Positions 6,417 through 63,888 of a stretch of 64,000 nucleotides of DNA are shown here, piece by piece. Origin of the DNA: Squalus acanthias (taxonomy: Eukaryota). Position 1 is the first letter of the stretch, and each line of letters opens with the position of its first letter. Below the pieces are notes generated by a model. It was given only the letters and a program-made list of their open reading frames with translations. It had not been told where the DNA came from and did not search any database. The position numbers were made by a program, and so were the translations under genes. The DNA lies in the NCBI GenBank assembly GCA_030390025.1, contig CM059432.1:46626001-46690000 (forward strand), written 5' to 3'.

Positions 6417-6654
6417 AGTGAGAAGTCGCACAACACCAGGTTATAGTCCAACAGTTTTATTTGAAATCACAAGCTTTCGGAGCTGCTGCTCCTTCGTCAG
6501 GTGAAGTGAAGAAAGTATTCCTTCACTTCACCTGACGAAGGAGCAGCAGCTCCGAAAGCTTGTGATTTCAAATAAAACTGTTGGACTATAACCTGGTGTT
6601 GTGCGACTTCTCGCTTTTGTCCACCCCAGTCCAACACCGGCATCTCCGCATCAA
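6417..6654 (+). mobile_element. Penelope-like element 3' end with inverted (fold-back) copy
   Basis: 92-bp inverted arms 6420-6511/6521-6612, 9-nt loop, unpaired ~40-nt tail, 11-bp TSD AGTTAGATTAT (6406-6416/6655-6665). Confidence 0.85.
6528..6565 (+). ncRNA. Minimal type I hammerhead ribozyme motif (mirror copy 6467-6504 on -)
   Basis: TCAC-CTGACGA-A-GGAGC(AGCA)GCTCC-GAAA-G-CTT-GTGA: core boxes, 5-bp stem II, stem I TCAC/GTGA, palindromic AAGCTT in place of stem III. Confidence 0.8.
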
Positions 6655-12654: not shown

Positions 12655-13049
12655 TGACCAAATAATAGAAGCACTTTTTCAAGAAATGAGGGAATTAGGG
12701 CTGAATTTTATGGTAGACTAGGGCTCCTTCTCCAAAAGTGACTGGTCCAGCAACCTTTGGAATTTGATTGAATTAGATTGACATGTTCCTTTTCTGTTTT
12801 GTTTCATAGCACCTTGCATCACTCTCACCAGCTTTGCCAAGCATCAGCACAGCTACACATGCCCCAGAGGATGTAGATAACAATCCTGATAAGGTAGCAC
12901 TGAGCAAGTCACAGTTCACTGGTGAGGAAGAACAAGTGATGTTGGGAATAAGATCAATCACTGGGTGCCCAGAGGTCCAGCATGGTTCATGCCTTTATTG
13001 CAGTGCCTAGTGATTCTAATCTCACAGAACCTGCATATAAATAAAGATT

Positions 13050-13573
13050 AAAAATAACAACAGAAAACGCTGGAAAAACTCAGCAGGCGAGGCAGCATCC
13101 GTGGAGAGAGAAACAGAGTTAACGTTTCAGGTCGATGACCTTTCGTCAGAACTGGAAAGAGCCGGAAATCAAATAGATTTAAGGCCAGGATAAAGCTGGG
13201 AAAAGGGGGAGGGGATGAAAGAACAAAAGGAGAGATTAAGAGACATTAAGAGACATTAAGAGATATCAAGGCAAGAGGTGGTGTTAATGTGACAGGTTAA
13301 GGCTGAAAGAAGTGTGAAATCCACTGGCAGAATGAAGGACAGCTGCCAGCTTCTAGGAGGAAAAAAAAAAGTGGGGGGGGGGGGCGCAAATAAAAGGGTG
13401 GATGAAAAAAATATATATAAATGTGATTGGAGCTAAGGTTATGATCTAAAATTGTTGAACTCGATATTGAGTCCAGAGGGCTGTAGCGTGCCTAAATGAA
13501 AGATGAGGTGCTGTTCCTCGAGCTTACGCTGCGCTTCCGTGGAACAGTGTAATAGGCCGAGGACGGTGAGGTT
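13050..13573 (-). mobile_element. Penelope-like element, 5'-truncated (GIY-YIG C-terminus + 3' repeat)
   Basis: 13573-13439 encodes LTVLGLLHCSTEAQRKLEEQHLIFHLGTLQPSGLNIEFNNFRS*; 14-bp TSD TATAAATAAAGATT (13036-13049/13574-13587). Confidence 0.9.
13117..13153 (-). ncRNA. Minimal type I hammerhead ribozyme motif
   Basis: On -: AGTT-CTGACGA-A-AGGTC(ATC)GACCT-GAAA-C-GTT-AACT; stem I AGTT/AACT, palindromic AACGTT. Confidence 0.8.
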
Positions 13574-16877: not shown

Positions 16878-17003
16878 CATGATGCGGAGATGCCGGTGTT
16901 GGACTGGGGTGGACAAAAGTGAGAAGTCGCACAACACCAGGTTATAGTCCAAAACAGTTTTATTTGAAATCACAAGCTTTCGGAGCTGCTGCCCCTTCGT
17001 CAG
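16878..17003 (-). mobile_element. Penelope-like 3' end (same family as 6417 and 59664) with truncated hammerhead
   Basis: Near-identical to the reverse complement of 6532-6654; begins at the CTGACGA box. Confidence 0.85.
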
Positions 17004-27161: not shown

Positions 27162-30100
27162 AGTGTGTCGCATGCTTATATGTCAAAAAGTACCAACAAT
27201 GAACACCAACTGCAGGGTTAACAGAAAGGGATGTTTCGAAGATCTAACTCTTCTGCTTGTGCATCGTATTCACTGTAATGCCCTGAAAGCCCCTGTTTCA
27301 TCTATTTATTTGCCTGCAAGCAAAGAAAAATCTGAAAACAAAACAGTGTGGTTACATTCCAACTGAACATCCAACATCATCATGCCCACCTAAGGATAAG
27401 GCAGACGAACCTTACATTGCCAAATAATGAGGACAAATGAGGTAAAGCTTGAGAATCATGTATATTACCTCCCTTTGCTGATTCAGTAGAGAAGTTATGA
27501 ATTACTTTTAGTTCCCACTCCACTCTATGTAAGGTTTTTTGCATCCAACGGCACTTCCAGAATATGTTCGGCTGTCATCTGGATTTATGTATTGCTTGTG
27601 TTACCTGATGTTGAATGTACCTTTCAAAGAGCAGTTGTGTGAGGACATGCCAAGTATTTGACAACCACCTAAATCAGATCTGGCTGCATATTGCTGTTGG
27701 ATTCCAACATAAAAGCAGATTATCGTCAGCCATTTTATTTGGCAACTTGAAAAATATTTGAATCTTTCTCTCTGTTATGATAGTTTTCGATGTGGTGACG
27801 ACTGTTTCTATGAAGTTATAGTTTCATCCAAATATAGTTAGAAGCACTGCCCACTATGATATCAGCCATCATACGACTATAAACAAAATTAATATGGGGA
27901 TGACTTGGCGTTTGAAGAATTTTCATTCATATTATTATGCCAATAATTTTGCTTATGTGCACAGTGTAACATTGCTTATTATATCTGAAAGAAATGACTG
28001 TCAGAAAATAGCTTAGTGCTAAAATGCATCGAACTGTCCACAGGATGACACTGGGCCTTTAAAACTGTGCAACATTTTCATTGCAACGAAGCTGGCTTTC
28101 GTTAACTTAATTTACTACTCGACATACTTCAGTAACGGTCTTGATTGTGCAACATCTGCTGCTTGGCCTTTTTAGTCACAGAATGTTACACAGCTGTGAT
28201 TTTTTTATTTAACTGTTCAACAAGGAAAATAGCAATACAAAACCAAGCCCAGATTAACACTCTTAGTGCTCTAGTTGACTTTAATGTTTATTTGTTCAGA
28301 ATTAGATGCATTCCTGGCCAGTATACCACAAGAAACAACACTTAAGGGTAGATTTTTCAAGTCCTCATCTGCAATATTCCAATATACATTGTCATGGGCA
28401 AAGTATCTTACCATGGGCGAGTGAGTCTTCACTTTAGTCACCTCTGGATCAGCAAGAATCAGTGGTATCCCTCCATTAGATCAGCAGGAAAACAAATCTT
28501 ACTTGTGCCCACCAGATTTTGTAGAATTGGGGTACATATTTGATTTAGCAGGACTACCACCCACCACAAGCATGCGTTCCTGATTCCAACTGATTATCCA
28601 GCCTCAGGGTAATTACCATAATTATGCTGGGCTCCCCAGCCTCTGAGTTCATCTAGAAGGGGCATGGAATATTGCTGTAGCAAGGCTTGGATGCCTATCA
28701 CAGTGTTGTGTCGCCAGTTGCCACTGTGGTAGCTGAGGATGTTGGCCAATTTTTTTTTTTAAGTTAATACGATCAATTGCTTTGGCTTTTAGGCCATTTA
28801 AACTTTAAGAGGAACTTAGTTACACAGAGAGTTGTGAGGATGTGGAATTCACTTCCAGGGTTCGTGCTTGAGACAGAAACTATGGACGGAATTTTCTGTA
28901 CCTGGGTGGGTCGAGTGCGGGCGGTCGCCGAGGCGGGTCGTTCTTCATTCCTTCCCGCTCCAGAGATCGACTTTCCGTTAATGATGCCTATTAAGGCAGC
29001 CCTGCGCATTACCCGGCCCTATTAAATGGTGCAGGTCTGATGACGTCATCGATAATGCGTTTTCAGCCAGGATATTTAAAGGAGCCATGGCCACATTGCA
29101 TTTGAAGGTTCACCTAGGATAGTGCAGGCACTGCACTGCACCATTGGAGTGTTGCAAAGAGTGGCAAATATGGTTGCACAGAAACAGAGGGCTGCACACA
29201 GGTTCTCAGATGACTCCCTCCATATGCTTGTTGAGGGAGTGAGAACATGCAGGGAGGTCCTCTTCCATTCCTATGGGCGGAAGAGACCTCACCAGGAGAC
29301 CAAAGGAGCCTGGCTCCAATTAGCTGAGGAGGTCAACAGTGGGGATGCTGTCAGGAGGACCTGGGTGCAGTGCTGCAAACGTTTCAATGATCTCATTAGA
29401 TCAGGAAAGGTGAGTGCAAAGCCACACTCAACTTCATCCTGCTGTGCCCCTCATCACATCCCCATCACTCTGCCCTCCCAACTCTACTCCTGCACATCCT
29501 TACTCACACCAACATACCTTGCAGGTCCACCCATTTCTCTCTATCTACATTATCACATCCCCATCTGACTAGCCACCCCTCACACTCACCCTCATCCTAA
29601 TGCAATCATACCAACTAATATCACACAAGGAGGCCACTTGGCATTGCCACCACACTCCTTCTTAGTCACCCTCTAAAGATGTAACCCATATATTCCTTAC
29701 GTTCAAGCCATCACTCTAACTCAACCGTTGCTTCTTTCCCTCCTTGCCGGAAAAGGGAGCCCACAATAAGAGGGAGAGGGAGAGAACCGGAGGTGGCCCT
29801 TCATCATTGACCTACTTAACAGCAGCAGAGGAGGTTGCATTGGAAGTGTCTGGAGTCACCGAGCAGCTGAAGGTTGGAGAGGGAGAGAGGGGGACATCTC
29901 AGCAACTTGGTGACAGAATTTCATCTCATACAGCCACATACAGCAGTCACTCATATGGGAACTGATGTCAGCAGCCAGTGAATGTTTATCATGTGCTTAA
30001 TGGTATCTGTACCCATTCTTGATATGACATGTCTAACTTATCTCTTTACTCTCCCACAGGTCCATCAAGAGCCCTCCCCACTCCATCCCCACTGTCCAGG

Positions 30101-32002: not shown

Positions 32003-35000
32003 TTACAACTTGTAGGCGTCATCGTTGTCTTCTTCCTTCGGCGTCTTCTGCAACAGCTTAACCCATTCTTGTTGCTTGCGTCTCCTGTTGACTCGACAAG
32101 TTATGATTAGTAAATATAACACAATCACCAACTAAACAATGACCAAAACATGGGAGATAAATCTTATCCAGGGATGAACCTCGATACTCATACCGATATC
32201 CCACCAGGATGAATCATCCCCGACCTTAAGGATTGCTTTACGCAGTTCATGATTTTTCTGGGCCAGGGTATAAAAGTGCTTTTGGGACTGACTAACGCGT
32301 CCCATTAACTCTACCAAGTGTTCTGACAGAGGTAGAAAGTCATAGCCGAATCGAGTTACATACTGGTGTAATTGCTCTTTTAACTCATCTTCTACAGCGA
32401 TATCTACTCGCCTGTGCGAATATATGCTTAATAAAACCCGCACCCCAAGTCTTACAGGTTGGACTGGGGTAAAGCAAAAAGTTCCTGCCGCAACAGGACA
32501 AGTCAGGTTGTTAACGTGCTGGTATTCCCGGTGTATGGTGGTGACACAATATTCACCCTTCCCTTGATACGCAGATCGTACGGGGAAATGCTGTCCCGCC
32601 ATCACTTTCATGGTGCAGTTCCATTCTATCCCATCCCAATCAAACCCACACACAGGGGCTGCCTGTTCTACCACGTCGTAAGGGCAGATGAATGTGTCCC
32701 GAGCTTGTGCGCACCCGGTAAGATCTGGGGCTACCCATGTGGTCCCATCCACTTGGGTCACGTACTTCGGGGGTTGGTCATACCTTATTAAGTGATCTCT
32801 CTGACATACTCCTATGTTCTCCACGTGGAACAGAGGGTTTGGGGTCACCTTTTCGGGCAGAATGGGATAATACAATACCATTCTGAACAGGATGATGTTG
32901 TTTTGTTCCTGCAAATGGCATTCATGTTCACTGGGTACACCTGTACCAACCCCCTGACTTTACACATATTCATGGTAAATTGGTAAATGGACATTGCCCT
33001 CAGGTGTCGATCAGTCACCCACGAGGGAAGCTTCACCTCAGCAATGCACTGCAGGTTTTCACGGGCTTGTTCCACTAACCAAGATCCATACATTACACTA
33101 GAGGCATTCCGATCTTCCTTTAAAATTTGGTTTATCTTTTTAGCATGGGATTCTAAATGTTTAACCACATCCTGCAGATGAATGGTCATAAATTGGTCCT
33201 CTTCCAATTCCTCCTGTTTTAGACCATTCATTTTATTCAAAATTTCCCTTAAAAGATTTCTAACCGCCTTTACGGATTGATCCAAATTAGCCAAATCAAG
33301 GCTATTAACCAGGGAGGTTCCAGTATTAACAACAATAGCTGCATCATTTATCAGACCCCATCGCCTTCTGATATGGTACCCTTTAATCCTGTAACCAACA
33401 TCATTTTCTTCAATGATCTCGGTACTATTTTCCCAAAGTCATCGTTGAATTCATCACCATCCCCTGTGCCCTATATAACGGCTGAGCGATATAATGGCTC
33501 TAATTCCGAGTCTGCCAATGTTGTGCTGGCGGTCTCCCAAAATCCCTCTATTAATTCCCGCATCATCCTCCCATATAACTGCGCTGCCTCTGGTTTGCAC
33601 CAGGTCAGCAGTCCCACCTCAGTCAGATTCAATATTACCGGCACCACCTCGTGATGCACATCACGATACAATATCATCCGAGTTGGGATCAGCACCAACC
33701 CATTTGTCAGTCTCGGGGTGTGTTTAGGGCAAGTGACCTGGGTTGTATGTTGTCCTTCCCAGGATTGTGTTTTATTCATAGGGGGAGGGGTTTTTGGTCG
33801 AACTTTTAATTCTACTGCATGTATAACCGCACTTCCGTCACCACATCCCGTTACGTGATAGGTGCTAATACCGGTATCGTTGCTATACCATTGATAGAGT
33901 TCCTTGGTCCTATGGTGGGCAAACATCGTACAACTGGTCACATCCCTTTCAATCAAAGACAAGCCATCCGAATCATCCGACTGGAACCTGTCTGTCACCC
34001 CACTTGGGCTCAAACATCCGTAAACTCCCTCATGAACTTTCCACCATTGGGGCCAACATAACAGGGTGTCTCCCACTGCTCGGGATTGGGTTGGGCTTCC
34101 TACATTTCCCCGAGGGTTCCCTATCTGATAGTACCTTGAATGGTCACTTGGTTCTGCTTGTAAAATCCACACCTGTGGCCCGGTGGGGCGATCTTTGCAT
34201 TTTATGAATACCCTCCCTAACTTCCTGGACCTCATAAGTGGTAACCCACACTGTCCCTGAACACGCGGTTTTATAGAAACAAAGAAGATAGGAGCAGGAG
34301 TAGGCCATTCGGCCCCTCGAGCCTGCTCCGCCATTCAATGCGATCATGGCTGATCATCCAAATTCAGTACCCTGTCCCTGCTTTCTCCCCATATCCCTTG
34401 ATCCCCTTAGCCTTAAGAAATATATCTAACTCCTTCTTGAATATATTTAATGAATTGGCCTCAACTGTCTTCTGTGGAAGAAAATACCACAGGTTCACCA
34501 CTCTCTGGGTGAAGAAATTCCTCCTCATCTCAGTCCTAAATGGCTTACCCCTTATCCTTAGACTGTGACCCCTGGTTCTGGACTCCCCCACCATCAGGAA
34601 CATCCTTCCTGCATCTAGTTTGTCTCGTCCTGTTAGAATTTTATAAGTTTCAATGAGATCCCCTCTCATTCTTCTAAACTCTAGCGAATACAAGCCCAAT
34701 CGACCCAATCTCTCTTCATACGTCATTCCTGCCATCCCAGGTATCAGTCTGGTGAATCTTCGCTGCACTCCCTCCATGGCAAGAACATCCTTCCTCAGAT
34801 AAGGCGACCAAATCTGCACACAATACTCAAGGTGTGGTCTCACCAAAGCCCTGTACAACTGCAGCAAGACTTCTTTGCTCCTGTACTCGAATCCTCTCGC
34901 TATGAAGGCCAACATACTATTTGCCTTCTTAACCGCCTGCTGCACCTGCATGCTTCCCTTCAGCGACTGGTGCACAAGGACACCCAGGTCTCGTTGCACT

Positions 35001-37035: not shown

Positions 37036-38086
37036 CTACCACTGGTGATACTTCAAGGGTGTCTTTTTATTTCTTTTACTACGCTGCCGTGGGGTAGGAG
37101 GGGTCTGTTGGATTCGTCTGCGGACAGGAGGTGGTTCCGGTCCTGGAGACGAGGAGGTTTCTACAGTTCCCATGTCCTGTCCACCTTCATTTGAATCATA
37201 CTGTACCTGTGGAGATGCCATTTCAGGCAAGGGCACCTCATTGGGTGGGGGTGTCCCCTTAGGCACCCCTGCTTCATCATCCCACTGGAGAGGATAAATC
37301 CTGTTCACCATGCTCATAATCATAGCTTGCTGTCTTCTGGACCTGCTAGTGGGCTGAAAAAGCTTCATCTGGTTAATATGAAACCACTTCATTTTCTTAG
37401 GTAACTGAACCACATACACCATGGGACTAGCTTTATCAACAATGCTATACGGCCCCTTGTAGAGGGGTTCAAAGACTCCCATCCTCGCATAGTTTCGTAC
37501 CATTACCTGGCTCCATACTTCCCATTCCTGGGGTTTACTGGGAGTCAGGTGTATTTGGTTGCGTTGGTGAACCTTCCCAATGTTGTAGGCGGCCCTCAAG
37601 TTCAGTTCTTTTAAAGTTCCCCACAGGTCGCTCAGGAATTTGTCCCGAGTCACCTCTTTAACTTGTTTATCAGTCAGAGTGGGGACTAACAGGTGTGTGG
37701 GGGTTCGCATGGGTCTCCCCGTTACCAATTCATGAGGGGAGTGACCCGTTCCTTTGGATCTGTTGCTACGTATCCCCATGAGGATTAGTGGAAGTACCTC
37801 ATCCCACTTAGTGTGCTGTTCATTTAATTCCTTTACGCAGAGCCAATTTTAATGTACGGTTCATTCTTTCCACAATCCCCGATGATTGTGGGTTGTGGGT
37901 CACGTGCCATTTCCCTTCAATTCCAAGCAATTTCAGAATGGCTTGCATTACCTGACCTGTGAAATGACTTTGTTGGTCTGACTCTACCATGCGAGGAAGT
38001 CCCCATCTGGAGAATACCTCTTTAACTAGGGTCTTGGCTGTCCACAATGCTGTGGCCGACTTGCACGGGAAGGCTTCTACCCACCT
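37036..38086 (-). pseudogene. pol: Retroviral-type integrase, core and C-terminus (pol 3' end), frameshifted
   Basis: RWVEAFP, FSRWGLPRMVESDQQSHF, HNPQSSGIVERMNRTLK, TGHSPHELVTGR, YKGPY, WFHINQMK. Confidence 0.92.
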
Positions 38087-39614: not shown

Positions 39615-42260
39615 TTAAGTAAATCTGGCCATGATGAGGCCATCCCTGGCCTCCCGGGCAGCAATGAGCTCGGGTGCTGGTGGGATCTGGACCGCAGCTT
39701 CCTCCTGCTCCTCCTCCTCCTCGTCTTCCAGCTGATGCTCCTTCTCCTCCTCCTGCTTCTCCTCCTCTGAAGAGGTCGTGCGCTCAGTGCCTTGCTCCTC
39801 ATGCAGCGCTAATCCTCGCTGCTGCATTATGTTGTGCAGGGCGCTGCAGACCACAACGATACTGGAGACCTTGGCTGGTGCGTACTGAAGGGCTCCTCCA
39901 GATCTGTCAAGGCATCTGAAGCGCAGTTTCAGCATGCCTATTGTCTGCTCTATGACACATCTGGTGGAAATGTGGCTTTCATTATATCTCTCCTCGGCCT
40001 CAGTACTTGGCCTCCTCAAGGGTGTCATGAGCCACGTCTTCAGTGGATAGCCCTTGTCTCCAAACAGCTAGCCGGAAAGTCTGTTTGGAGAAGCAACGAG
40101 CTGAGGGAGGGTGGTCTGGTGCAGGACGAAAGAGTCATGGCAGCTGCCAAGGAATTTGGCACACACATGCATAATAACATAAGAACATAAGAAATAGGAG
40201 CAGGAGTAGGCCAATCGGCCCCTCGAGCCTGCTCCGCCATTCAATAAAATCATGGCTGATCTGATCCTAACCGCCAATCTACTATCTATCACAGAACCAT
40301 CTCCTGCATCTAACAGAATTGCACACACGAAATAGGAGCAGAATCAGGCTACACGGTCCCTGGGCCCGCTCCACTACCCACAGGGCCATGACCGATCCGA
40401 ACCTAGACTCATGTCCAAATTCCTGCCCGCTCCCCGTAACCCTTAATGCCCTTTACTTCTAGGAAACTGTCTATTTCTGTTTTAAATTTATTTAATGATG
40501 TAGCTTCTACAGCTTTTTGTGGCAGCATATTCCATGGACCTACCACCCTCTGAGTGAAGTAGTTCCTCCTCATCTCAGTTTTGAAAGAGCAGCCCCTTAT
40601 TCTAAGACTATGTCCCCTAGTTCTAGTCTCACCCGTCATCGGGAACATCCTCCCCGCATCCACCTGATCCAACCCCTTCACAATCTTATATGTTTCAATA
40701 AGATCGCCTCTCATTCTTCTGAACTCCAATGAGTAGAGTCCCAATCTACCCAACCTCTCCTCATATGACCACCCCCTCATCCCCGGGATTAACCGAGTGA
40801 ACCTTTTTTGCACTGCCTCGAGAGCAAGGATGTCTTTCCTTAAGTAAGGACACCAAAACTGTATGCAGTATTCCAGGTGCGGTCTTACCAATACCTTGTA
40901 CAACTGAAGCAATACCTCCCTATTTTTATATTCTATCCCCCTAGCAATGAAAGCCAACATTCCATTTGCCTTCTTAATCACTTGCTGCACCTGCATACTA
41001 ACCTTTTGAGTTTCGTGCACCAGGGCCCCCAGATCCCTTTGCACTTCAGTACTCTCCAGTTTCTTGCCATTAAGATAATAAATTGCTCTATGATTTTTCC
41101 TGCTAAAGTGCATCACCTCACACTTTCCAGTATTGTATTCCATCTGCCAAATCTCTGCCCACTTACTTAGCCTGTCTATGTCCCCTTGCAGGTTTTTTAT
41201 GTCCTCCTCACTCACTACTTTCCCTCCCATCTTTGTATCATCTGCAAATTTTGATATGTTACACTTGGTCCCTTCCTCCAAATCGTTAATATAGATTGTA
41301 AAGAGTTGGGGACCCAGCACTGACCCCTGTGGAACACCACTAGTTACTGATTGCCAGTCTGAGAATGAACCATTTATCCCAACTCTTTGCTTTCTGTTAG
41401 ATAGCCAATCCTCTATCCATGCCAGAATATTACCCCCAATCCCGTGATTTTTTACCTTAAGCAATAATCTTTTGTGTGGCACCTTGTCAAATGCCTTTTG
41501 GAAGTCTAAATACACTACGTCCACTGGTTCCCCTTTATCCACTCTATATGTTACTTCCTCAAAGAACTGATCTTACTATGGTTGCAGACGAGCTGCACAT
41601 TGAGGGAGTGGAAGCCCTTGCGGTTGACAAAAACTCCTGAATGATGATGGGGTGCCCTGATGGCCACATGGGTGCAGTCGATGATGCCTGCACCCATGGG
41701 AAGCCAGCCAGCGCGGCAAAGGCCAGTGCCCGCTCAGTAACACTGGCTTCATCAGTGGCAAAGTTGATATAATTGGCTGACTTGTCAAAGAGGGCATTGG
41801 TGACCTGTGTGATGCATCTGTGGGCGGCTGACTGTGAGATGCCGCAAATGTCTGCTGCAGATCCCTGGAAGGAGCCTGAGGCAAAGAAGTTGAGGGCACT
41901 GGTGACTTTGACAGCCACTGGTAAGGCATATCCACCTGCTCCTCTGGGTTGCAGATCTTGCTCCAGCAATCTGCAAATGTCTGCGACGACCTGGCGCAAT
42001 AGCCTGAGCCTCCTTTGGCACTGCTGCTCTGTCATGTTGAGGAAGCTCATCCTCTGCCTGTATACCCTGTGTTGGGGGAATCGCCTCCGGCGCGGTGCAG
42101 CCCTGCGCTGATGCCCTGTGTCCTGTGCAGCATCAGGTGATTGCGAAGAAGGTTGGTGGTGTTGTTGTTGGTACTGCTGGCGTGCCTAGTGCTGCTGGTG
42201 TTGGGGCTCATCGTGGTCTGATTCTGAGGACCAAGGTGAGACAGTATAAATGGCACCTAT
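39615..42260 (-). pseudogene. Harbinger DDE transposase (HARBI1-family), split by a CR1
   Basis: [90 protein letters not shown]; frameshift and stops. Confidence 0.93.
40176..41568 (-). mobile_element. 5'-truncated CR1 LINE with uninterrupted RT ORF (41542-40409) and duplicated 3' tail
   Basis: FADDTK RT; transposase reads HSKI|IMHV across the insertion. Confidence 0.95.
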
Positions 42261-45094: not shown

Positions 45095-45781
45095 GGGCTG
45101 GATTTTCCGGGGGGGTCAGCGGGCATGATCGGTGGCGGGTTGGGATGGAAAGTGTTTTTTTTCCCCAGCGGGTCAGGACCTCACTGGGAGCCCGCCGCCA
45201 TGCGCCTTTCCCCAATGTTGGTTCTGTCAGCACTGAGCAGACCCGACACGCAGCGTCGGGGGACCTATTTCAGGTCATTATGACCTTGTTTAGAGATGAT
45301 TAAGAACACATTTGAGCTCACCTTTTGATTTTACATGCTCGCCCATGGGGTCCTCGTTGCTCGGGGATCACGTCTGTTAAGCTGAGACGGGAGTTCGGTG
45401 ACCATTGAATCAGCTGTTCAGTTGACAACTTCAAATGTAAAGTAAAAGCTCCCACCTTTTGCGAGAGCCTGGGTACAGCCCTGTACCTCTGTGCAGTGCT
45501 TGTCAGTGTTTACAGCACCTCAATGCTGCAGAACACTGACAGCAAAACTGTCAAAATGAATGTGGCCATGGTCCCTTTAAAGAAACCGGCTGATGACGTG
45601 TCATTAAATGACTTCATCAGACCCGCTTCCTTTTAATTGGTCGGGAACCCCACAGGGCGGGCTTAACAAGCCCAATTAACATAAAATCCTTTTGACAGAG
45701 CGGCTGCAGCTGGGAGCAGGACCGGAACCCACCAACCAGCTCTCCCGCCGCCATCCCGCCTCCACTGGCGAAATTGCGGCC
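45095..45781. mobile_element. Harbinger MITE
   Basis: GGGCTGGATTTTCC ... GCGAAATTGCGGCC; 45465-45680 is a direct repeat of 46585-46797. Confidence 0.75.
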
Positions 45782-46902
45782 AGGGCATCAGCACCGGACA
45801 ACATTGCTGCCCGGGAGGCCAGTGATGGCCTCACCATGGCCAGATTTACTTTACTTGACGCTGTACAGCCTGGCTGCCACATGATGTGCCAGGTTGGCAC
45901 CACCCCAAACCAACACCATAAAGCATCCCTACAATGCCCGAGACATTCCTTTAACACTCATCACCATTGTGGGGTGGGGTTGGGGGCGGGGGGGGGGGTA
46001 CCGTTCTGTCTCACCATTCACTGCAACTCACTAAGCCACTTCCAAAGACGCACACAAATCTGTCCAAGAATGCAAAGTGTTGAAAATAAAGATTTCAATG
46101 TTTGACAGCACATTAACAGAAACTTTACATGAACATTGCATAAAACACCCAAGTGCCTACCCTTGTGTGTTGTTAGTTGGTAGGATTGCGCTAGGATGAG
46201 GGTGAGTGTGAGGGGTGGCTGGTGAGATGGGGAAGTGATAATGTAGATAGAGAGGGATGAGTGGAGGTGCAAGGTAAGTTGGTGTGAGTAAGGATGTGCA
46301 GGAGTAGGGTAGGTAAGGCAGAGTGATGGGGATGTGATGAGAGGCACAGCAGGATGAGGTTGAGTGTGGCTTTGTACTAATGTTTTGTGATCTACTGAGA
46401 TCATTGAAACGTTTGTGGAACTGCACCCAGGTCCTCCTGACCATATCCCTGCTTGTACCCTCCTCTGCAATGTGCAACCAGGCTGTGTTGATCTCCTGAG
46501 GAGGTTTCTTCCACCCATGGGAAGGGAAGAGGACCTCCCTGCATGCTGTGACTCCATCCATAAGCATATGGAGGGAATCATGGGAGAGCCTGGGTGCAGC
46601 CCTGTGCCTTTGTGCAGTGCTTGTCAGTGTTTGCAGCACCTCAATGCTGTAGAACACTGACAGCACAACTGTCAATAGAAGGTTGGCCATGGTCCCTTTA
46701 AGGAAACCGGCTGATGACCCGTCATGAAATGACATCACCAGACCCGCTTCCTCTAATTGGCCGGCAAACGCGCTGGGCGGGCTTAACAAGCCCAATCACG
46801 GTAAACTCATTTCAGAGGCTGGGATGGAGCCAGCAGCGGGGTCGGGACCCACCACTGATGTCGCCCACCACGGACTCGCCGAGGTAGGGGAAATCGCGGC
46901 CC
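45782..46902 (-). mobile_element. Non-autonomous Harbinger derivative retaining Myb exon 1
   Basis: RAAPRLSHDSLHMLMDGV...RRTWVQFHKRFNDL on -; end GGGAAATCGCGGCCC; same internal deletions as 1-1099. Confidence 0.85.
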
Positions 46903-57379: not shown

Positions 57380-58255
57380 CATGTATATCAATGACTTGGA
57401 TATAGGGCTAGAGGGAGCGGCATCCAAATTTACAGATGATACTAAAATAGGAGGGCTAATAAATAATTCTGCGGACCATAGGAATCTGCAAGGGGATATT
57501 GGTAAAGAATGGTGGAATGGGTAGAAAAGTGATAGACCGAATTCAATGTCAGTAAGAGTGAGGTGGTACATTTTGGTAAAAAATAGTAATAATTATACTT
57601 TGAATGAGGGAAAGGTGGGTGATGTGGAAGATCAGAGGGACTTGGGAGTCAGTTTCACAAGGTTTTAAAAGCAGCACCTCAAGCGGATATGGCCATAAAA
57701 AAAGCTAATAGAATAATGGGTTTTATGGCAGGAGGCCTAGAAATTAGATTGCCCTGCGCCCATTTTACAGGCATAAAATGTGTGTGCTCATTGTGCATCA
57801 GAAGTGCACCACTTGCCATATTGCTTAGGGCTCCTTTGCAGGCATCCGGGGATGCGCCACAAGCTGGCATTAGGCCTATTGCATCTGCAAATTGGTGGCC
57901 TAATGCCTGTTCCAGGCCCCTTTGCAAAATTGGATTGTGAATGAGCACAACATGCACAGTGTGTGCTGCATTCAGTTTCTTCAGGCGTTCAGCAGCCAAA
58001 CCAGCAGTTTTTAAAGGGGCATTAGAGGGGACAGTGCAGGTTCACTAGGATACTGCCTGGTATAAGAAAACAGAAATATAAAGAAGGACTTGAAAAATTA
58101 AAGCTGTTTTTGTTAGAACAGAGATGATTACAGGGTGATTTGATTATGAGGGGATGGGACAGTATAGATAGAAACAGACTGTTTCCAGAGATTGAGGAGT
58201 TAAGAATAAGGGGACATAGATACAACAGTAAATGTAAGAAATTTAGAATAGAAAG
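57380..58255 (+). mobile_element. Old CR1 RT fragment with a MITE remnant (~57733-58020)
   Basis: YINDLD..ASKFTDDTKIGG, AIKKANRIMGF. Confidence 0.75.
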
Positions 58256-58273
58256 TAGAGTCATAGAGTCATA

Positions 58274-59046
58274 GGGGTAGAAATTGAGTCGCGCCCCATT
58301 TGGGGCGCTAACCTCGCCGGGGCGCGACTTTTAGCGCCCCGAAAAAATTAGCGGCCCCGCGCCGGAACTTCAGTGGTTGCGCCCCAAGAGGGAAGCGGGG
58401 CGCCACTGGAAGCACCCCGCATCCCTCTTGGGGCGCTGCGAGTGAATATCCTGGCGCTACGTGCCGCAGTGCCACGCGCTGCGGCACGTCGCGCCGCGGT
58501 ATTGCAGGCCTTCCTCCCCTTCTTAAAGGGGAGGGACCCTGCGCAGCGCGAACCGGGGCCCAGCTGGGCCCCCAGGGATCGGGAGTGCCGGCAAAAGAGC
58601 CCGGCACTCAAGAGAAGTGCCGGGCTCTTGGAGCGCAGCCGGCACTTCACGGTGGGGGGGCTTCACGGGGGCCGGGGACAGCAACGGGGGCAGGTGCTGG
58701 CAGGCGGCCAGCAACAAAAATGGCCGCCTGCCACCTCCCCTTTAAATATCGCCGCCCCGGCCGCACGTACGCCTCCCTGAACCCGTCGGACATAGCGTCT
58801 GGCGGTAAATCAGGGGGCGCGACTGAAGATCACGGCTGGGGCGCGAGCGGGGTGCTGCGCACGGTGATGACGTCATCGCCGGCGGCGCAGCGCCACAGGG
58901 CGCTACCGGCTGCCGCCGCCGCTAACCTCCCACTAAATTTTTCGGGAGGCGTGGGCGGCGCTGCGCCCGGGCGTTAGCTGCTTTACGCCCCATTAGCGCC
59001 CTCTTAAGGCGCTAACGGGAGGCGCAAGCAGCTGAATTTTTCCCCC
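58274..59046. mobile_element. GC-rich Harbinger-type MITE
   Basis: GGGGTAGAAATTGAG / CTGAATTTTTCCCCC, 3-bp TSD ATA within the CR1 tail. Confidence 0.9.
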
Positions 59047-59663
59047 ATAGAGTTATACAGCACAGAAAGAGGCCCTTCAGCCCATCGTGTCTGCGCCGGC
59101 CATCAAGCCCTATCTATTCTAATCCCATTTTGCAGCACTTGGTCCGTAGCCTTGTATGCTATGGCGTTTCAAGTGCTCATCTAAATGCTTCTTGAATGTT
59201 GTGAGGGTACCTGCCTCTGCCACCCTTTCAGGCAGTGAGTTCCAGATTCCAACCACCCTCTGGGTGAAAAAGTTTTTCCTCAAATCCCCTCTAAACCTCC
59301 TGCCCCTTACCTTGAAACTATGCCCCCTGGTTATTGACCCCTCTACTAAAGGGAAAAGTTCCTTTCTATCTACCCTATCTATGCCCCTCATAATTTTGTA
59401 CACCTCAATCAGGTCCCCCCTCAGCTTTCTCTGCTCTAAGGAAAACAACCCCAGCCTGTCCAGTCTCTCTTCATAGCTGAAGCGCTCCAGCCCAGGTAAC
59501 ATCCTGGTGAATCTCCTCTGCACCCTCTCCAATGCAATCACATCCTTCCTATAGTGTGGCGATCAGAACTGCACACAGTATTCCAGCTGTGGCCTAACTA
59601 GCGTTTTATACAGCTCCATCATAACCTCCCTGCTCTTATATTCTATGCCTTGGCTAATGAAGG

Positions 59664-60140
59664 TCATGATGTGGAGATGCCGGCGTTGGACTGGGGTGGA
59701 CAAAAATGAGAAGTCGCACAACACCAGGTTATAGTCCAACAGATTTATTTAATTTTACAAGCTTTCGGAGCTGTTCGCTCCTTCCTCAGGTAGGGTAGCA
59801 GTGAGAGAATCTCCCAGAATTCACAATATAAACACAGAAAAAATCTATTCAAATCTTTCCCTACATCAAAGACACACTAAGAGCACAGCCAAGACAATGA
59901 GATGTGTCCCAGGGGGTCGTTGGACCCCCTGGGACACATCTCATTGTCTTGGCTGTGCTCTTAGTGTGTCTTTGATGTAGGGAAAGATTTGAATAGATTT
60001 TTTCTGTGTTTATATTGTGAATTCTGGGAGATTCTCTCACTGCTACCCTACCTGAGGAAGGAGCGAACAGCTCCGAAAGCTTGTAAAATTAAATAAATCT
60101 GTTGGACTATAACCTGGTGTTGTGCGACTTCTCATTTTTG
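59664..60140 (-). mobile_element. Penelope-like element 3' end with 218-bp fold-back
   Basis: Arms 59701-59918/59923-60140, loop GTTG, unpaired 37-nt tail, TSD (TT)GGCTAATGAAGG (59650-59663/60138-60151). Confidence 0.88.
60049..60085 (+). ncRNA. Minimal type I hammerhead ribozyme motif (mirror copy 59756-59792 on -)
   Basis: TAC-CTGAGGA-A-GGAGC(GAACA)GCTCC-GAAA-G-CTT-GTA. Confidence 0.8.
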
Positions 60141-60842
60141 GCTAATGAAGGCAAGTATCCCATATGCCTTCTTAACCACCTTATCTATCTGTCCTGCTGC
60201 CTTCAGGGATCTATGTACATGCACACCAAGGTCCCTCTGATCCTTTGTCCTTCCTAGGGTCCTACCATTCATTGTGTATTCCCTTACCTTGTTAGTCCTC
60301 CCAAAATGCATCACCTCACACTTTTCAGGGTTAAATTCCATTTGCCACTGTTCTGCCCACCTGACCAACCCGTCTATATCGTCCTGAGGCTTCCCTCCTC
60401 GCTATTTACCACTCCACCAATTTTCGTGTCATCTGCAAACTTACTGATCATACCTCCTACATTCATATCTAAATCATTAATGTACACTACAAACAGCAAG
60501 GGACCCAGCACCGATCCCTGCGGTACACCACTGGACACAGGCTTCCAGTCACAAAAACAACCTTCTACCATCACCCTCTGCCTCCTGCCACTAAGCCAAT
60601 TTTGGATCCAATGTGCCAAATTGCCCTGGATCCCATGGGCTCTTACCTTCTTGACCAGTCTCCCATGCGGGACTTTTTCAAAAGCTTTACTGAAGTCCAT
60701 GTAGACTACATCAACTACACTACCCTCATCCACACACCTGGTCACCCCCTCGAAAAATTCAATCAAATTGGTTAGACATGATCTCCCCCTGACAAAGCCA
60801 TGCTGACTATCCTTGATTAATCCTTGCCTCTCCAAGTGGAGA

Positions 60843-61092
60843 GTAGGAGAAACTATTTGACACAGAGGGTCGTGAGGCTGTGGAATCTATTATTGGAGTT
60901 AGTGATTGAAGCAGAGACCATGTCAACATTTTAGAATAAGTTAGATAGGTTGTTGAAGAAAAGGAGAAAAAAAGGATATGGGAACAGGGCAGACACTGGG
61001 ATTATGACTACATCTGGTATGGAGGATAAACAACAACTTTGTCTGGTTAGGCCAAACAGCCTGTTTCCGTGTTGTAATTTCTATGTAATTCT
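60843..61092 (+). mobile_element. Degenerate CR1 3' end
   Basis: RRNYLTQRVVRLWNLL, KGYGNRA; TTCTATGTAA tail. Confidence 0.72.
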
Positions 61093-61189
61093 ACCACATG
61101 TGCAACAGACACACTGGCCATTACTGTTGAAAAGCACAATTTGGAGCAATATTCAGATAATGTTGTGATATATCACTGCAGTCTATGGT

Positions 61190-61690
61190 GAAAACAAAAG
61201 AGGTTCACCAGATTGATCCCTGGGATGAGAGGGTTGTCCAATGAGGAGAGATTGAGTACAATGGGCCTGTACTCTCTGGAGTTTAGAAGAATGAGAGGTG
61301 ATTTCATTGAAACATGTAAGATTCTGAGGGGGATTGACAGGGTAGATGCTGAGAGGTTGTTTACCTGGTTGGAGAGTCTAGAATTAGGGGTCACAGTCTC
61401 AGGATAAGGGGTAGGCCATTTAAGACTGAGATGAGGATAAATTTCTTCACTCAGAGTATGGGGAATCTTTGGATTTCTCTACCCTAAAGGGATGTGGATG
61501 CTGAATCATTACGTATATTCAAAACTGAGATAGATAGATTTTTGGACTCCAGGGGAATCAAGGGATATGGGGATCGGGCAGGAAAGTGGAGGTGAGGTTG
61601 AAGGTCAGCCATGATCTTATTGAATGGCGGAGCAGGCTCGAGGGGTCGTATGCCCTGTTCCTGCTCTTAATTCTTATGTTCTTATGTTCG
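61190..61690 (+). mobile_element. CR1 3' end
   Basis: LIPGMRGLSNEERL..GLYSLEFRRMRGD; (TTCTTATG)n tail. Confidence 0.9.
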
Positions 61691-62029
61691 TAAGAAGACC
61701 AAGCTAAATAGTGTAAATTTTGACTGTTAAAAAGATCAAGTACCAGTAACTTGTACATGGTGAAAGGGCCAGTAAATAAGGCAAGTCGTGGGGCTTGAAT
61801 TATAATGGACAGGGCCAATTGGAGAAGTCGATCACAAACAACTGAAGTACCATGTCACAGAAAATCCATGGGTTGATGGATATAGTTATTATTTATTGTG
61901 AAAACAAGTTGATGTGGGTGATGCATTATCTCTGCTGTATTTGGCGTATATGGAGTGGATGCCCTTTTATGAAGCAAAAGAGAAGCTGGTTTGTAGGAAT
62001 TTGCAGCTAGTCCAGGTGAAATATATAGA

Positions 62030-63153: not shown

Positions 63154-63888
63154 GGGGGGAAAAACTGAGTCGCGCCCCATTTGGGGCGCTAACTTCACCA
63201 GGGCGCTAAAAGTAGCGCCCCGATAAAATTAGCGCCCCCGCGGCGGAAATTCATCGGTAGCATCCCAAGAGGGAAGCGGGGCGCTACTGGAAGCGCCCCG
63301 CCTCCCTCTTGGGGCACTGCGAGGGAATGTCGTGGCGCGACGTGCAGGAGCGCCATGTGCTGCGGCACATCACGCCGTGGTACTGCAGGCCTTCCTCCCC
63401 TTCTTAAAGGGGAGGGGCCTTGTGCAGCGCGACCCGGGGCCCAGCTGGGCCACCAGGGATCAGGAGTGCCGGCAAAAGAGCCTGGCACTTCTCTGGAGCG
63501 CAGCCGATACTCTGTGAGGTGGGTGCTCAGGGGGCCAGGGACGGCAACGGAGGCAGGTGCTGGCAGGCGGCCAGCAACAAAAATGGCCTCCTGGCACCTT
63601 GCCTTTAATTAGCGCTGCCCCGGCCGCAGGTGGGCCCCCCTGACCCCGTCGGATATAACGTCCATCGGTAAGTCAGGGGGCGCTACCGAATATCGCGGCC
63701 GAGGCACGAGTAGGATGCTGCGCACGGCGATGATGTCATCGCTGGCGGTGCAGCGCTGCGGGGTGCTAACGGTTACCGCCGACGCTAACCTCCTGCTGAA
63801 TTTCGTGGGAGGCGTTGGCGGCTCCACGCCAGGGTGCTAGTTGCTTAGGGCGTTAACAGGAGGCGCAAAGCAACTGAATTTCTCCCCC
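63154..63888. mobile_element. GC-rich Harbinger-type MITE (same family as 58274-59046)
   Basis: GGGGGGAAAAACTGAG / CTGAATTTCTCCCCC, TTT flanks; colinear with 58274-59046. Confidence 0.9.

Follow-up and report, generated by a model that had tools for sequence, protein, structure and literature searches.

Positions 59664-60140 of the window, i.e., of the whole 64,000-nt stretch of Squalus acanthias DNA analysed here, hold a 477-base, hairpin-shaped remnant of a Penelope-like element (PLE), designated copy A, which lies within a LINE read from the minus strand. The features of the locus are:

59122-59663, minus strand: host LINE, part downstream of the insertion, with an open frame at 59119-59562 and 68% identity to a paralogue at 34548-34908
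59650-59663, plus strand: left target-site duplication, 14 of 14 positions identical to 60138-60151
59664-59700, minus strand: AC-rich PLE tail of 37 nt, the 3' end of the element, also present in two further copies (B and C) and without counterpart in the right arm
59701-59918, minus strand: arm 1, 5'-truncated PLE terminal sequence, the plus strand of which is the presumed first cDNA
59763-59789, minus strand: minimal type I hammerhead core of arm 1 (CTGAGGA..GAAA)
59919-59922, no strand: loop of 4 nt (GTTG), the fold-back point
59923-60140, plus strand: arm 2, inverted tail-less copy with 0 mismatches to arm 1, its last 3 nt lying also in the duplication
60052-60078, plus strand: minimal type I hammerhead core of arm 2 (CTGAGGA..GAAA)
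60138-60151, plus strand: right target-site duplication, pairing with 59650-59663
60138-60886, minus strand: host LINE, reverse transcriptase (RT)-encoding part upstream of the insertion, with RVT_1 in 60377-60886, resuming in register with the paralogue

A preliminary description of this DNA had presented the arms as reverse complements around a 4-nt loop, with the inverted arm devoid of the terminal tail only, and our analysis confirmed each of these points: 218 of 218 positions pair with 0 mismatches and pairing ends at the first base outside the arms, GTTG occupies 59919-59922, and the 37 nt at 59664-59700 are found on the left side only, with no mirror image. When 59000-61000 was shuffled 20 times by mononucleotides, the longest perfect arms flanking a loop of <20 nt measured 6-9 nt. 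The same description had put the target-site duplication at 12-14 bp; the direct repeat stands, while its length has to be given as 11-14 bp, because TTG (60138-60140) is common to arm 2 and the direct repeat. Since an uninterrupted LINE paralogue in the window carries the duplicated stretch once (34895-34908) and with both flanks in register, the alignment of the left flank ending at 34908 and that of the right flank beginning at the equivalent of 34895, the direct repeat is a true target duplication. The insertion had further been placed in a CR1 element: that it interrupts a LINE is borne out by the frame 60377-60886 (minus strand), which matches RVT_1 with E 1.3e-19, and the CR1-like affiliation is presumed.

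A search of sequencing runs listed 22 runs, in 5 of which at least half of the words occurred; RNA runs were absent from the list, and the search is thus uninformative on expression. Four of the 22 runs were aligned to the left flank plus one arm, where copies of the family and of the LINE swamped the result, and run X22 yielded 0 aligned reads. What is reported here on joints, loose ends and pieces refers to those listed, which were 15 joints out of 34, 15 loose ends out of 653 and 16 pieces out of 34,452. Two alignment rows in which 'to' precedes 'from' (59735 to 59704; 59737 to 59719) may represent fold-backs or tandem repeats and were excluded. Same-species contigs diverge at 59663, going on into the LINE (92 and 114 contigs). 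Five of the joints listed, some at high depth, lead from LINE positions 59644-59647 to 59702, 59706 or 59707 of the element; this cluster may represent an insertion hot spot in the LINE near the site of copy A, or a short-match artefact.

A fold-back produced during library preparation or assembly has to be weighed at this point. Fold-back chimeric reads give 100% palindromes, which is what copy A looks like, and none of the 16 pieces listed among 34,452 spans the left flank together with one arm. Tandem and inverted PLE structures are, moreover, described in the available text of PMC8557442 as troublesome for assemblies. An artefact would, however, not make a duplication that is in register with the paralogue, restore the LINE sequence beyond it and leave out precisely the tail, and a second fold-back in the window (copy B) is built in the same way, with arms that mismatch at 2 of 98 nt; hence, we consider an artefactual origin exceedingly improbable.

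Three copies of the family are present in the window, two of which are fold-backs with loops of 3-4 nt and arms of 218 and 98 nt. Besides copy A, they are:

6417-6654, plus strand: copy B, the second fold-back, with arms at 6417-6514 and 6518-6615 and a 3-nt loop, in a SINE-like repeat
16878-17003, minus strand: copy C, a single tailed copy ending at the hammerhead

The arms of copy B, 98 nt each, are 98% complementary, its 39-nt tail (6616-6654) lies on one side only, and its 11-bp duplication (6406-6416/6655-6665) was confirmed against an uninterrupted paralogue of the surrounding SINE, which we take to be HE1-like. Copy C has no inverted arm, nor was a duplication seen around it by eye; as a single tailed copy, it indicates that folding back is not obligatory. 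The tail end is common to copies A, B and C within about 3 nt and the lengths of the copies differ, and hence they resemble 5'-truncated retrocopies. The inner part of the copy A arm has no match elsewhere in the window. Nevertheless, contigs of two runs cover the entire arm with variant bases (depth in these contigs not being equal to copy number), and therefore the inner arm belongs to the family and is not captured host DNA. Searched for as a 24-nt motif, the family had no match in the metagenome, viral and prokaryote collections (0 loci each). Elsewhere in the window, 1618-1763 form an imperfect inverted repeat of 65 nt (72%), in which no family motif was recognized by eye.

A MITE-like, non-autonomous fold-back unit copied as a 477-nt palindrome would likewise present a self-contained terminal inverted structure with a duplication, and the coverage of the whole arm by family contigs would suit it. 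This is nonetheless highly unlikely, given that copies A and B are unlike in arm length, loop and upstream sequence, that the ends are asymmetric, and that the summed contig depth drops steeply toward the loop (in run X1 from ~1e6 at 59855-59869 to 2,686 at 59915-59922), a fall to which an edge effect contributes and in which depth does not equal copy number. Identity as a MITE or another non-autonomous DNA transposon was also rejected on the grounds that all three window copies differ in length. Equally hard to credit is that a single-arm insertion was made palindromic later, by template switching during replication or by break repair, or that older arms were homogenised by gene conversion. 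Gene conversion could yield perfect identity of the arms, and self-annealed 3' ends with small hairpins are reported to give inverted duplications at L1-cut sites (bioRxiv 10.1101/2024.12.14.628481, available in part), but a later event should not end right at the tail boundary while leaving the duplication intact in both copy A and copy B.

The assignment to PLEs with minimal hammerheads, proposed in the preliminary description, was upheld: the tail is one-sided, and the traits of the type I core match those given in the available part of PMC4209133. An inverted 5'-truncated copy and a one-sided tail of 30-40 bp are described as typical of PLEs in the accessible text of PMC8557442 and PMC8969392, and the window copies display the corresponding traits of EN+ PLE insertions, namely a one-sided tail in this size range (37 and 39 nt in copies A and B, respectively), an adjoining head-to-head inverted 5'-truncated copy (copies A and B), a 3' end that is fixed while the 5' truncation varies (three copies), and a short duplication (11-14 bp in copy A, 11 bp in copy B). 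Copy A itself contains no PLE coding remnant. We are highly confident that the 477-base insert is a truncated PLE insertion, in which a heavily 5'-truncated end of the element is joined to its own inverted, tail-less copy. A connection to a PLE protein is given indirectly: a search with the hammerhead pattern recovered two marine metagenome contigs (L001 and L002) of a different family; on L002, the same type of hammerhead lies 3' of a GIY-YIG frame (phrog_5123, E 1.1e-4; no match of the frame in Pfam), and L001 holds an RT fragment (RVT_1, E 1.5e-5, below the cut-off), which is antisense and located at 102-449 on the minus strand. L002 also bears inverted pieces of its own coding region (1-109/983-1091, 94.5% over 109 nt); in these PLE-like contigs, such pieces and the antisense RT fragment sit between the endonuclease frame and the hammerhead. 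A different repeat in the window (13040-13570, minus strand) has its own minimal hammerhead (13125-13149) and is not a fold-back; ~300 nt upstream of this hammerhead lies a short frame (13445-13570), in which tblastn with the L002 frame gave no match, and which we presume to resemble the C-terminus of a PLE endonuclease.

The motif CTGAGGA..GAAA, noted earlier in each arm, was located at 59763-59789 (minus strand) and 60052-60078 (plus strand). Both hammerheads possess the CUGANGA and GAAA core, an extra A after A9, a stem II of 5 bp, a stem I of 3-4 bp, and a palindromic AGCU that replaces helix III, i.e., the set of traits by which minimal hammerheads are recognized. In the part of PMC4209133 available to us, the minimal hammerheads of metazoan PLEs share with copy A the type I core, the extra base between positions 9 and 10.1, the G10.1-C11.1 pair, the short helix I and the palindrome in place of helix III; they differ in that copy A has the 5-bp stem II and a G at N7. 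By analogy with that architecture, arm 2 would be cut after 60082. Aligned over 7 rows, 89.8% of the 59 cells of the hammerhead pair, a value reached by 2 of 500 shuffles, and 2 of the 9 pairs change on both sides (as in 18 of 500 shuffles), one of them from C-G to U-A in stem I of copy A. The covariation thus lends apparent but modest support to the structure, because the rows are related and the structure was drawn from the same rows. The stability of the monomer hammerheads does not exceed that of their shuffles (z between 0 and -1.7), nor do the tails adopt a stable fold (z between +0.5 and +1.6); in the predicted dimer, two monomers pair via AAGCUU. In Rfam, 0 of the 18 matches within 58000-62000 (E up to 10) reached the gathering score and none belonged to a hammerhead family. 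An identity as microRNA was rejected, the Rfam miRNA matches being sub-threshold and generic to hairpins.

Folding of 59560-60260 gave about -500 kcal/mol on either strand. The preliminary description had suggested that the hairpin sequesters its own ribozyme, and the prediction agrees, the pair probability of stem II being 0.00 in the hairpin vs. 0.67 in one arm. It had also spoken of hammerheads on both strands; the cores do lie on opposite strands, yet as a by-product of the inversion, and each transcript has one hammerhead. In either direction, this would be a single dimer-type hammerhead, the antisense copy of which is transcribed first. The hammerhead at copy A is hence predicted to be inactive twice over, having no partner in cis and being masked. 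Dual minimal hammerheads on opposite strands, 100-700 bp apart, are known from Schistosoma (PMC4209133, available part), and hammerhead cleavage was dispensable for insertion in vitro according to the accessible text of PMC11167929. We propose that the dual hammerheads of copy A are passengers, for which no host function is needed.

The point at which the inverted copy stops is nearly the same in both fold-backs: the tail-less end is at 59701-59704 for copy A and at the position matching 59705 for copy B. Similarly, 12 of 13 LINE-to-element joints in same-species contigs (among the 15 of 34 joints listed) enter the element at 59700-59708 and the remaining one at 59666. The LINE sides of these joints are short (19-26 nt, 85% likeness), and positions 59705-59706, which vary within the family, shift alignment starts to 59707. 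Since such short sides and this variation sharpen the cluster, it counts as support rather than proof. Among the loose ends listed for 34 raw reads of another organism, 3 reads end at 59666 and 3 at 59709. No strand-change joint was found among the 15 of 34 joints listed.

Given the duplication, the tail, the symmetry and the end points, all of which are observed, we postulate an order of events, which is inferred. The parent would be an endonuclease-bearing PLE, the enzyme of which presumably cuts both target strands 11-14 nt apart. Because the plus strand reads antisense from the tail, it would be the first cDNA, primed by the plus-strand end at 59663 at the end of the RNA tail and running for about 255 nt. 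The symmetric centre suggests that the 3' end of this cDNA then snaps back over the 4-nt loop and copies itself. At the other target end, the returning strand would be captured at an internal start site of the element, located 37-40 nt inside the tail end. It would either anneal to a second, short cDNA that had been primed at this site from the other target strand or switch over by means of 3 nt of microhomology (TTG); host repair would then fix the palindrome. We regard this sequence of target-primed synthesis, snap-back, self-copying and capture at an internal start site as probable. Were the arms truncated independently, two near-symmetric centres would arise with P 0.008 to 0.0001 in a toy model (uniform length ranges of 100-1000 nt assumed; n=2). 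Self-priming by a snapped-back cDNA, as put forward in the preliminary description, is accordingly the likeliest source of the symmetric centre, with loops of 3-4 nt in 2 of 3 window copies, but by itself it leaves the stop of the second arm at the tail boundary unexplained. This stop would be explained by a second RT start site: in vitro, as described in the available part of PMC11167929, nicking and extension of both target strands were found for a PLE protein that starts at two sites bounding the tail and is predicted to form a dimer. Snap-back of cDNA is itself a detected class of junctions for R2 (PMC11371274, available part).

The same in vitro data, i.e., the extension of both strands and the predicted dimer, would also suit pure twin priming, in which a dimeric enzyme makes one cDNA per target strand and the 3' ends of the two anneal via a short palindrome, with no self-copying at all. 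Twin priming gives the tail-less end directly, from one start at the tail and one internal start, and its junction would equal that of a snap-back if annealing occurred via a tiny natural hairpin. Independent cDNAs should, however, often yield unequal arms, whereas both fold-backs turn within 3-4 nt and at unrelated points; moreover, the two arms of copy A agree at every difference from copies B and C, as expected of one template or of two RNAs from one source locus. We therefore judge twin priming alone to be unlikely, and retain snap-back with capture at an internal start site as the preferred reading.

Much of this has precedents. Published descriptions exist of the inverted copy with its tail, of self-priming, of hammerheads on opposite strands and of siRNAs derived from inverted repeats of Penelope (PMC8557442, PMC3846280, PMC4209133, PMC3681739; each available in part). 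A study of 2013 had already put forward self-priming for the palindromes at inverted Penelope junctions (PMC3846280); self-priming on an antisense template, as described there, fits cDNA, and the authors, in the accessible text, discuss antisense RNA. Like copy A, the EN+ PLEs of Adineta have head-to-head inverted ends, a tail at one end and a palindromic junction read as self-priming (PMC8557442 and PMC3846280, available parts). Their duplication is 8-10 bp vs. 11-14 bp in copy A, and the Adineta examples enclose an ORF or captured DNA, whereas copy A is one perfect hairpin without an ORF, truncated very early. Poseidon of Anolis carolinensis, as presented in the available part of PMC11167929, shares with copy A two start sites bounding an AC-rich tail downstream of the hammerhead, and in the copy A motif AGG stands at the place of the Poseidon start codon. 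In R2 snap-back (PMC11371274) and in inverted duplications at L1 sites (bioRxiv 10.1101/2024.12.14.628481), as described in the accessible portions, a 3' end self-primes before the second junction is made, as we suggest for copy A; unlike copy A, these cases belong to other retrotransposon classes and have no tail and no fixed second end point. Small interfering RNAs match the inverted regions of Penelope in transgenic D. melanogaster (PMC3681739 and PMC3136932, available parts); the Drosophila elements resemble copy A in the long inverted repeats of rearranged copies. The hairpin of copy A would be no more than a candidate siRNA source, ADAR target or cruciform, the roles that the preliminary description had raised.

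In the searched literature, with most subscription papers and Repbase lying outside the search, none of the titles listed dealt with the PLE family of copy A or with the second-strand step of PLEs. The origin of inverted PLE copies and the completion of the second strand are called open in the available texts of PMC8557442 and PMC11167929, and in the latter, the Poseidon study, inverted copies are unaccounted for and the second-strand steps unvalidated. Tentatively, we speculate that these stubs are fossils of a two-ended integration, in which an enzyme dimer would use two start sites on opposite target strands and a snap-back strand would bridge both cDNAs, so that the element completes its own insertion. 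Such a step has not been shown for any PLE in the accessible portions of the literature examined.

Among 121 frames of at least 50 aa in 46.7-64 kb, taken from the 189 that are listed past 41 kb, three LINE domain matches and one sub-threshold match to ATG14 (E 0.008) were found and no host exon was recognized, which is compatible with a location within an intron. A GC-rich repeat containing several short, imperfect hairpins is present twice, at 58270-59050 and 63190-63610. Broken frames at 32100-34330 and 37036-37848 presumably represent envelope-like and integrase-like portions of an LTR element. Several copies of one repeat with frames (39615-42185, 28990-29640 and 45780-46790) presumably carry genes for a Harbinger transposase and a Myb/SANT protein.

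Copy A is a dead repeat within a dead LINE, a clean but ordinary example of its kind, and its value lies in being a clean record of an unsolved step of PLE integration. Such palindromes are easily mistaken for microRNA hairpins or MITEs, as the sub-threshold miRNA matches illustrate. Short, unmutated fold-backs have readable junctions, and counting them can separate snap-back from twin priming. If the two-ended integration were true, the inner arms would stem from one RNA and the outermost bases of the tail-less arm possibly from a second RNA, and a side effect of the process would be a genome-wide stock of self-silencing hairpins.
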